The notes below the pieces were generated by a model that was not told the DNA's origin, did not search any database, and worked only from the letters and a program-made list of their open reading frames with translations. The position numbers and the translations under genes were made by a program. Of a stretch of DNA of 64,000 nt, positions 47,895-60,107 are shown piece after piece. This stretch comes from Escherichia coli (GTDB lineage Bacteria > Pseudomonadota > Gammaproteobacteria > Enterobacterales > Enterobacteriaceae). Location of the stretch: NCBI RefSeq assembly GCF_003334815.1, contig NZ_QOWO01000020.1, one strand, 5' to 3'. Position 1 is the first letter of the stretch; each line of letters starts with the position of its first letter.

Positions 47895-53958
<6,064 letters not shown>

Positions 53959-56494: not shown

Positions 56495-56590
56495 CTACGC
56501 CTGTCAGGCCTATTCGACTCCTGCAATGTATTGAATTTGCATAGTTTTATAGGTCGAATAAGGCGTTCACGCCGCATCCGGCGTGAACAA
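56495..56590. repeat. RIP-type BIME (REP, IHF-site core, REP) between cho and nadE
   Basis: gcctgtcaggcctat ... tgcaatgtattgaatttgcatag ... ggcgttcacgccgcatccggcgtgaac. Confidence 0.6.
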
Positions 56591-57995: not shown

Positions 57996-58026
57996 TCAAT
58001 TCGTCTGAAAGCTTGAGTAACAACGG

Positions 58027-58053
58027 AAACCGGCCATTGCGCCGGTTTTTTTT
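58027..58053 (+). terminator. intrinsic terminator downstream of osmE
   Basis: aaaccggccattgcgccggtttttttt. Confidence 0.65.
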
Positions 58054-58293
58054 GGCCTGAGTTCTTAATTATCTTCGCGAATTATTTGCCCGAAATGTGA
58101 AGAGGGTCATAACCACAGGTCAAGGAGAAACAATTTATAAGGTCAAAGAAATACTATTGCTCAGGTCTATACCGTATACTCCTTTCAGCCACAAAAAAAG
58201 TCATGTTGGTTTCGCAAGTTACCCAGAGCATGGAAGCAGGTTAAGGCTTGCGGAGTGTCTGGCTGACAGATAATCGTCGATGAGGGCAGTTTT

Positions 58294-58614
58294 ATGGAAA
58301 AGAAACACATTTATCTGTTTTGTTCTGCGGGCATGTCTACCTCTTTACTGGTATCAAAAATGCGCGCACAGGCAGAAAAATATGAAGTTCCGGTCATTAT
58401 TGAAGCATTTCCGGAAACACTGGCTGGTGAAAAAGGTCAGAATGCCGATGTCGTGTTATTAGGGCCGCAGATTGCTTATATGTTGCCCGAAATCCAGCGT
58501 TTGTTACCCAACAAACCGGTTGAAGTAATTGACTCGCTGCTTTATGGCAAAGTCGATGGTTTAGGCGTGCTTAAGGCTGCGGTTGCAGCGATTAAAAAAG
58601 CCGCAGCAAATTAA
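58294..58614 (+). CDS. chbB: PTS chitobiose-specific EIIB
   Basis: ORF track 106 aa; CSAGMSTS phosphorylation-site motif. Confidence 0.95.
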
Positions 58615-58629
58615 TTTATTTTAAATTTT

Positions 58630-58641
58630 CCCGTCAAAGAG
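58630..58641 (+). promoter_or_regulatory. ChiX sRNA pairing (decoy) site in the chbB-chbC spacer
   Basis: CCCGTCAAAGAG is complementary to the remembered ChiX seed CUCUUUGACGGG; a hairpin plus T-run follows at about 58660-58685. Confidence 0.55.
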
Positions 58642-58698
58642 TTATTTCATAAATCAATACCGCAATATTTAAATTGCGGTTTTTAAGGGTATTTTTCT

Positions 58699-60057
58699 AT
58701 GAGTAATGTTATTGCATCGCTTGAAAAGGTACTCCTCCCTTTTGCAGTTAAAATAGGAAAGCAGCCACACGTTAATGCAATCAAAAATGGCTTTATTCGC
58801 TTAATGCCGTTAACCCTTGCGGGGGCCATGTTTGTATTAATTAACAACGTTTTTCTAAGCTTTGGGGAGGGGTCGTTTTTTTATTCCTTAGGTATTCGCC
58901 TCGACGCCTCAACCATTGAAACACTTAATGGTCTGAAAGGTATTGGCGGCAACGTATATAACGGAACATTAGGAATAATGTCTTTAATGGCACCGTTCTT
59001 TATTGGCATGGCGCTGGCAGAAGAGCGTAAAGTCGATGCGCTGGCGGCTGGGTTGTTATCCGTTGCAGCATTTATGACCGTCACCCCATATAGTGTCGGT
59101 GAGGCCTATGCGGTTGGTGCAAACTGGTTAGGTGGGGCGAATATCATCTCCGGGATTATTATTGGCCTGGTGGTGGCAGAAATGTTTACCTTTATTGTCC
59201 GCCGCAATTGGGTCATTAAACTGCCCGACAGCGTACCTGCTTCAGTATCGCGTTCCTTCTCGGCATTAATTCCCGGCTTTATTATTCTTTCCGTGATGGG
59301 GATTATTGCCTGGGCGTTGAATACCTGGGGCACCAACTTCCATCAGATCATTATGGATACCATCTCAACCCCACTGGCATCGTTGGGTAGCGTGGTGGGC
59401 TGGGCCTATGTGATCTTTGTTCCACTGCTCTGGTTCTTCGGTATTCATGGCGCGCTGGCGCTGACCGCACTGGACAACGGCATTATGACGCCGTGGGCAC
59501 TGGAAAATATCGCGACCTATCAGCAATATGGTTCCGTCGAAGCGGCGCTGGCAGCCGGTAAGACCTTCCATATCTGGGCCAAGCCGATGCTGGACTCCTT
59601 TATTTTCCTTGGGGGCAGTGGTGCGACTTTAGGCCTGATCCTGGCTATCTTTATCGCCTCTCGCCGTGCTGATTATCGTCAGGTGGCAAAACTGGCGCTG
59701 CCGTCCGGCATCTTCCAGATTAACGAACCGATTCTGTTTGGTCTGCCAATTATCATGAACCCGGTGATGTTTATCCCGTTTGTACTGGTACAACCGATTC
59801 TGGCGGCAATCACCCTCGCAGCGTACTACATGGGCATTATTCCTCCGGTGACCAATATTGCACCGTGGACCATGCCAACCGGTCTGGGAGCCTTCTTTAA
59901 CACCAACGGTAGCGTCGCCGCATTGCTGGTCGCACTCTTCAACCTTGGCATCGCAACGTTAATTTATCTGCCCTTTGTTGTGGTGGCTAACAAAGCACAA
60001 AATGCGATTGATAAAGAAGAGAGCGAAGAAGATATCGCTAACGCCCTGAAATTTTAA
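58699..60057 (+). CDS. chbC: PTS chitobiose-specific EIIC
   Basis: ORF track 452 aa. Confidence 0.95.
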
Positions 60058-60107
60058 TCGATGCCGGTACGGGTAATCGTGCCGGTAAGAAAAGAGAGGA
60101 ACGATGT

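Follow-up and report, generated by a model that had tools for sequence, protein, structure and literature searches.

The chbB-chbC spacer of an Escherichia coli chb operon matches the known ChiX decoy and carries a covarying stem-loop

The 84-nt spacer between chbB and chbC in the stretch of Escherichia coli DNA analysed here (64,000 nucleotides, hereafter the window) is assigned, with a probability of about 0.96, as the chbBC decoy of ChiX, an Hfq-dependent small RNA; the decoy has also been termed an anti-sRNA, trap or sponge. The first-pass annotation had proposed this mechanism, in which chb mRNA titrates ChiX, and both direct alignment with ChiX and the published descriptions of the spacer support it. 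Because the published accounts describe exactly this spacer, the feature is already known: it is the textbook ChiX decoy, and nothing in the sequence of the spacer contradicts that reading. The window spacer and the described chbBC decoy share operon position, sequence and pairing partner, and no difference between them was found. In this E. coli window the decoy is nothing new, and its value is that of a positive control for the recognition, from sequence only, of a proven RNA-RNA site. The additions to the known decoy are confined to covariation in the hairpin, loss of the site in particular lineages and variability of the T-run; modest leads for specialists are the hairpin covariation, the site loss in Kosakonia, a possible matched change in Proteus and extra sites at chbA. 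Position, pairing geometry, statistical strength, conservation and identity with the K-12 spacer were computed here. Operon induction, ChiX decay (attributed to PNPase after terminator remodelling) and chiP derepression are taken from the literature.

The window belongs to the E. coli chromosome, since 5425 of the 5426 complete E. coli genomes contain a match to a 1.2-kb query around the spacer, in most cases at 99% or above. RefSeq annotations on those matches identify the flanking genes as chbB and chbC, and the spacer sits between these two cistrons of the chbBCARFG operon, at exactly the coordinates and length that had been claimed for it (Table 1). Downstream of chbC, open reading frames follow that fit chbA, chbR, chbF and chbG in position and size; chbR, chbF and chbG are named by position and size alone, and chbB, chbC and chbA by RefSeq annotation. 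In the list of open reading frames of the window, osmE, nadE and cho are the upstream neighbours of the chb genes. The MG1655 counterpart lies on the complementary strand at 1819856-1821619, where the 84-nt gap between chbB and chbC is free of annotation, and no feature covers the spacer in the RefSeq records that were checked. The spacer itself is present in 5403 of the 5426 complete genomes (4568 of these at 99% or above), and the window copy is 100% identical to that of the K-12 derivative RP437, and thus to the spacer that has been characterised. Several complete E. coli genomes carry IS1, IS5 or IS903 inside the 1.2-kb chbB-chbC stretch (equivalent to 58000-59200), and in some genomes with matches to 58000-59200 chbC is annotated as two pieces.

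Table 1 Features of the chbB-chbC spacer and its flanking genes, in window coordinates.
Feature	Position	Strand	Basis and remarks
chbB (PTS chitobiose enzyme IIB)	58294-58614	+	106-aa ORF; RefSeq annotation, MG1655 b1738; cistron 5' of the decoy
chbB-chbC spacer	58615-58698	+	84 nt
Tract of only A and U, UUUAUUUUAAAUUUU	58615-58629	+	Read directly; immediately 5' of the pairing site
ChiX-pairing helix 1, CCCGUCAAAGAG	58630-58641	+	12/12 Watson-Crick pairs with ChiX 47-58
ChiX-pairing helix 2, AUUUCAU	58644-58650	+	Pairs with ChiX 38-44 (RNAduplex, cofold)
Stem-loop, ACCGCAAT-ATTTAA-ATTGCGGT	58659-58680	+	-10.5 kcal/mol, z = -3.7, 0/200 shuffles as stable
T-run, UUUU (five U including U58680)	58681-58684	+	Read directly; after the stem
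chbC Shine-Dalgarno, AAGGG	58685-58689	+	Read directly; 9 nt before the ATG
chbC (PTS chitobiose enzyme IIC)	58699-60057	+	452-aa ORF; RefSeq annotation; cistron 3' of the decoy

To define the pairing, the annotated MG1655 chiX gene (L001 1205-1288; Rfam sroB match of 82 bits) was used as the ChiX reference, with CUCUUUGACGGG as the seed sequence. A single copy of CCCGTCAAAGAG was found in the window, on the plus strand, and it forms a perfect Watson-Crick complement of ChiX nucleotides 47-58. The claimed seed complementarity is thereby borne out at all 12 positions of a direct alignment, and the pairing is longer than had been stated: a 2x2 internal loop (58642-58643) separates the first helix from a second, and the two helices together comprise 19 bp with a duplex energy of -28.5 kcal/mol by RNAduplex, whose energies leave out intramolecular structure and Hfq. 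Helix 1 takes in G57 and G58 of ChiX; in the Rfam sroB consensus structure, these two nucleotides account for the two lowest Watson-Crick pairs of the terminator stem. When the spacer and ChiX are cofolded, the net gain is -20.7 kcal/mol and the spacer hairpin stays intact. When both strands of the window were cut into 6396 tiles, no tile gave a better duplex with ChiX (tile mean of -12.2, sd of 3.0), and in 2000 shuffles of the spacer that preserved its dinucleotides, the energy of the site was reached only twice (z = -5.0). By analogy with the general features of class II small RNA targets, the tract of only A and U that precedes the site would be a candidate Hfq contact. The earlier remark that ChiX itself is encoded elsewhere also holds, as no sroB match at the gathering score was found in the 64 kb of the window.

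The possibility that an inverted (antisense) chiX copy left the spacer as its remnant, with the spacer hairpin corresponding to the ChiX 5' hairpin, was considered and is very improbable. A weak full-length sroB match on the minus strand of the spacer (22.2 bits, relative to a gathering score of 44) points in this direction, as does an unconstrained RNAduplex pairing that runs on through both hairpin regions. Against such an origin, the local similarity score outside the seed is 6, a value equalled or exceeded by 99% of shuffles (mean of 7.8), and the sequence of the ChiX 5' hairpin is not conserved within its own family. An antisense chiX copy was therefore rejected, since similarity outside the seed does not exceed that of shuffled sequence. 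More generally, no match at gathering level was found with Rfam 15 over 58550-58760, the sub-threshold matches being the minus-strand sroB match and a match to FnrS that is considered below with the hairpin.

To assess conservation, 80 Enterobacterales loci were collected by a ChbC-based scan and their spacers extracted, 70 of which were aligned. Most of the 80 loci carry an identical 12-mer, among them those of Escherichia, Citrobacter, Salmonella, Enterobacter, Klebsiella, Raoultella, Lelliottia, Leclercia and Pluralibacter, and the sites of these genera are predicted to form duplexes of -27 to -31 kcal/mol with E. coli ChiX. The ATTTCA of helix 2 is kept in Escherichia, Citrobacter, Salmonella, Enterobacter and Klebsiella, and a shortened site (UCCGUCAAAGAG or UCCGUCAAAGAA) is present in Cedecea and Buttiauxella. 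This pattern bears on whether an A/T-rich spacer could have come to match ChiX by chance. Complements of ChiX that are 10 nt long do occur elsewhere in the window, as would be expected by chance (for example at 49911 on the minus strand, antisense to a 344-aa ORF). However, 58630-58641 is the one place in the 64 kb where 12 nt in a row are complementary to ChiX, whichever part of ChiX is considered, the energies of the tiles and shuffles set it apart, and the site is kept from genus to genus amid variable flanks. Together with the experimental characterisation of the site in the literature, this conservation refutes a chance match, which can be given almost no weight.

Departures from the common site follow particular lineages. 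In Proteus (L049, L072, L074, L079, L081) the site reads CCAGUCAAAGAG. The Rfam sroB consensus has GACuGGCC where E. coli ChiX has GACGGGCC, with U in place of the E. coli G56, and the Proteus spacer is predicted to pair at -26.0 kcal/mol with this U variant, to which it is a perfect match, versus -21.6 kcal/mol with E. coli ChiX. These values suggest a matched base change in ChiX and its decoy, the U variant used for the comparison being the Rfam consensus rather than a Proteus chiX. Six Kosakonia-type spacers (L021, L022, L023, L025, L026 and L050, from Kosakonia and a soil MAG) and the divergent L080, each just upstream of position 2501 of its locus, have no complementarity to ChiX, with predicted duplexes of -9 to -13 kcal/mol. 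At these loci ChbC is 84-93% identical to that of E. coli and the Shine-Dalgarno region is kept, and the A/U tract is absent; an A/T-rich tract lies 5' of the site in every site-bearing spacer, whereas Kosakonia, which lacks the site, has mixed sequence instead. The stem-loop is retained in the Kosakonia-type spacers but not in L080.

Comparison with the chitoporin leader indicates how the spacer could act as a decoy. In the chiP leader, the site CGTCAAAGAGGA forms a duplex of -21.8 kcal/mol with ChiX 45-56 that spans the Shine-Dalgarno sequence of chiP. The chbBC site and the chiP leader share a 10-nt core, CGTCAAAGAG, so that the spacer holds a contiguous complement to the same ChiX seed that pairs with chiP, and this common core identifies the chb site as a target mimic. 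The two sites also differ in several respects. The chbBC site is shifted by 2 nt relative to the chiP site, into the base of the ChiX terminator stem, which brings about the pairing with G57 and G58. Unlike the chiP site, it has a second helix, and its duplex with ChiX is predicted to be stronger by approximately 7 kcal/mol. Finally, the chiP site lies over a Shine-Dalgarno sequence, whereas the chbBC site lies away from that of chbC: the 12-mer is 58-69 nt upstream of the chbC ATG, and at this distance the chbC ribosome-binding site is not masked.

An intergenic decoy for ChiX in chbBC was reportedly described as an anti-sRNA or "trap-mRNA" by Overgaard et al. 2009 in E. coli, and is said to have been found likewise by Figueroa-Bossi et al. 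2009 in Salmonella. In the published work surveyed here, the chbB-chbC spacer element is called a ChiX decoy, trap or sponge, and ChiX is described as being depleted by chbBC, which derives from this spacer. In a genomic-library screen, the chbBC intergenic region was present in 25 of 25 clones that strongly derepressed a chiP reporter, and the chbBC-ChiX interaction has been recovered by RIL-seq. Later papers describe derepression of chiP and decay of ChiX upon induction of chb by chitobiose, as well as an alteration of the ChiX 3' terminator region by chbBC pairing that exposes ChiX to PNPase. Reviews name chbBC as the first sponge to be characterised; chbBC-ChiX was the first bacterial mRNA decoy for a small RNA, and it is the reference case for RNA sponges. 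The chbBC sponge now also serves synthetic biology as a part: in a 2026 preprint, synthetic sponges are constructed on a "ChbBC" scaffold (Syn-ChbBC), the flanks of which are letter for letter those of window positions 58615-58632 and 58642-58698. The same preprint places a portion of chbBC's interaction with ChiX outside the reprogrammable mRNA-binding seed of ChiX, which matches helix 2.

Taken with the computed pairing, these accounts outline a sequence of events for the window. Chitobiose would induce chbBCARFG and thereby yield an abundant polycistronic mRNA that carries the spacer. ChiX, which normally silences the chitoporin mRNA chiP across its ribosome-binding site, would then pair with the two helices of the spacer instead, in a duplex that is predicted to be stronger than that with chiP and to extend by two more bases into the foot of the terminator hairpin of ChiX. 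ChiX would be titrated and destabilised, and chiP would be derepressed; as a consequence, the porin and the transporter would rise together.

A second way of reading the site is that it is chiefly cis-regulatory, with ChiX lowering chbC and the distal chb genes when induction is poor and with the decoy effect being secondary. Pairing necessarily acts on both partners, and such an effect is compatible with a decoy. Nonetheless, 48 nt lie between the end of the pairing site and the ATG, and a stable hairpin separates this site from the Shine-Dalgarno sequence; this distance and the intervening hairpin make direct occlusion of the ribosome unlikely. In addition, the library screen and the reviews give loss of ChiX activity as the dominant phenotype. 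A chiefly cis-acting role thus remains a minority reading, considerably less probable than its converse, and titration of ChiX by the decoy is preferred.

As a decoy that lowers the activity of an Hfq-dependent small RNA, the chbBC segment resembles other sponges that are parts of transcripts, such as SroC (from gltIJKL, acting on GcvB) and 3'ETS-leuZ (acting on RyhB and RybB). SroC and 3'ETS-leuZ are processed, discrete fragments, whereas one paper regards the intact mRNA as the sequestering species for chbBC. The route of decay differs as well: GcvB is degraded via RNase E in the case of SroC, and the decay of ChiX is ascribed to terminator remodelling followed by PNPase. ChiX is also sponged by ChiZ, which derives from the chiP (ybfM) 5' leader.

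Downstream of the ChiX site and ahead of the ribosome-binding site of chbC, the spacer forms a stem-loop of 8 bp (ACCGCAAU / AUUGCGGU) with a 6-nt loop. The first-pass annotation had noted a weak hairpin and a T-run; both are present, and the hairpin, although described as weak, is the better conserved structural feature. In each of three sequence contexts, its base pairs have probabilities of 0.84 or more. Across the 70 aligned spacers, 95% of the cells for the stem are paired and changes on both sides are found in five of the eight pairs (57 cells), while slid controls reach at most 55% paired. A hairpin that is conserved with compensatory changes in this manner is not incidental. In contrast, the T-run in the form UUUU(U) is confined to Escherichia and a few Citrobacter, and is replaced elsewhere by AUUU, CUUU, CUUA or AAUA. 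Termination is consequently unlikely as the conserved function of the hairpin: a G+C-rich stem-loop and a U-tract are not conserved here as a unit, and a conserved terminator was rejected on account of the variable T-run.

A narrower proposal, which is restricted to E. coli, is that the hairpin and U-run act as a leaky intrinsic terminator and that a short RNA of chbB and the spacer, rather than the full-length mRNA, is the active sponge. An RNA released in this way would end in a hairpin with a U-tail, which is an Hfq-binding 3' end, and in Escherichia the stem-loop of -10.5 kcal/mol is indeed followed directly by UUUU(U). The sub-threshold Rfam match to FnrS, a small RNA that ends in a terminator, spans 58571-58684 (25.9 bits, relative to a gathering score of 60) and is consistent with the same idea. 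Several observations run counter to it. Most of the genera with both the site and the hairpin have an interrupted U-run, one paper treats the intact mRNA as the species that sequesters ChiX, and transcription of chbC to chbG must pass through the region of 58684. No 3' end at chbB/chbC is listed in the supplementary Term-seq tables that were consulted, which come from conditions that were not designed to induce chb. A consensus terminator scan made no plus-strand call at the spacer, but this is weak evidence, as the scan apparently also missed an obvious terminator downstream of osmE (58020-58052, plus strand), where a clear hairpin followed by eight T, AAACCGGCCATTGCGCCGGTTTTTTTT, is recognised by eye. 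Overall, a leaky terminator that yields the active sponge is improbable, and the intact chb mRNA is retained as the decoy.

The survival of the hairpin in Kosakonia, where both the ChiX site and the A/U tract are missing, points to a role that is separable from ChiX pairing, and the stem-loop is inferred to be an RNA structural element with such a role. Its covariation raises the tentative suggestion, with the odds currently against it, that the stem-loop may be a conserved RNA element with a function of its own; the 2026 preprint terms it "likely important" and names no role. Candidate roles include a nuclease barrier or processing signal that would set the ratio of ChbB to ChbC, an insulator that would keep the ChiX duplex off the chbC ribosome-binding site and, in Escherichia only, a leaky terminator that would free a discrete sponge RNA. 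The AAGG of the chbC Shine-Dalgarno sequence is invariant or nearly so in the spacer alignment. In the minimum-energy fold, the GGG at 58687-58689 in this sequence pairs with the CCC at 58630-58632, where the ChiX site starts. One of these pairs covaries, being C-G in 53 sequences and U-A in 12, and the predicted pairing probability is 0.9 in short contexts versus 0.04 in a 201-nt context. The modelled pairing raises the possibility that ChiX binding may be coupled to chbC translation.

Several further observations were made at related loci. A perfect complement of 11-14 nt to the ChiX seed lies in the ribosome-binding site of chbA in Citrobacter sedlakii, C. amalonaticus and Proteus (L007 3893-3906, L014, L072 3904-3915, L074 and L081). 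One example, CGTCAAAGAGGAAT, gives a duplex of -29.9 kcal/mol and resembles the chiP site; the chbA ribosome-binding site of E. coli (window 60091-60099) contains just AGAGGAA. By complementarity, a second, lineage-specific ChiX site may thus exist inside the chb operon. In Klebsiella and Raoultella the spacers are 147-169 nt long (L033, L034, L043-L045, L053-L056 and L058), with approximately 65-85 extra nucleotides that follow the chbB stop codon and precede the ChiX site; the extra segment appears, as judged by eye, to hold inverted repeats, and no Rfam family was matched in L033, L034, L043 or L053. The spacer of Kosakonia oryziphila (L025) is 220 nt long, owing to an insertion of approximately 147 nt between the hairpin and the chbC Shine-Dalgarno sequence. 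This insertion has no Rfam match, and its flanks (GGGCCTGGCCC ... GGGCCAGGC) give it the look of a small mobile or repetitive element.

An Rfam scan of ten related loci for known families in the spacer insertions placed none in the spacers. In Buttiauxella sp. B2 (L041 1631-1824, minus strand), the region upstream of chb holds a match of 176 bits to the Rfam family Ysr251 (Yersinia sRNA 251, antisense class). Another locus, from a record titled Chryseobacterium sp. 18061 (L038), is 87% identical to E. coli over ChbC and has a typical Enterobacteriaceae spacer, identical to the one that the same study reports for Citrobacter sp. 18056 (L040); mislabelling or contamination of the Chryseobacterium record is probable. 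Within the window, matches to Rfam ES036 (CssrF) above the gathering score are found on the minus strand at 56506-56548 and 63652-63694. The former is close to a palindromic sequence between cho and nadE that is similar to the repeated GCCGGATAAGGCGTTCACGCCGCATCCGGC-type palindromes downstream of chbG, among which the latter sits. Rather than dedicated small-RNA genes, both matches appear to be REP elements.
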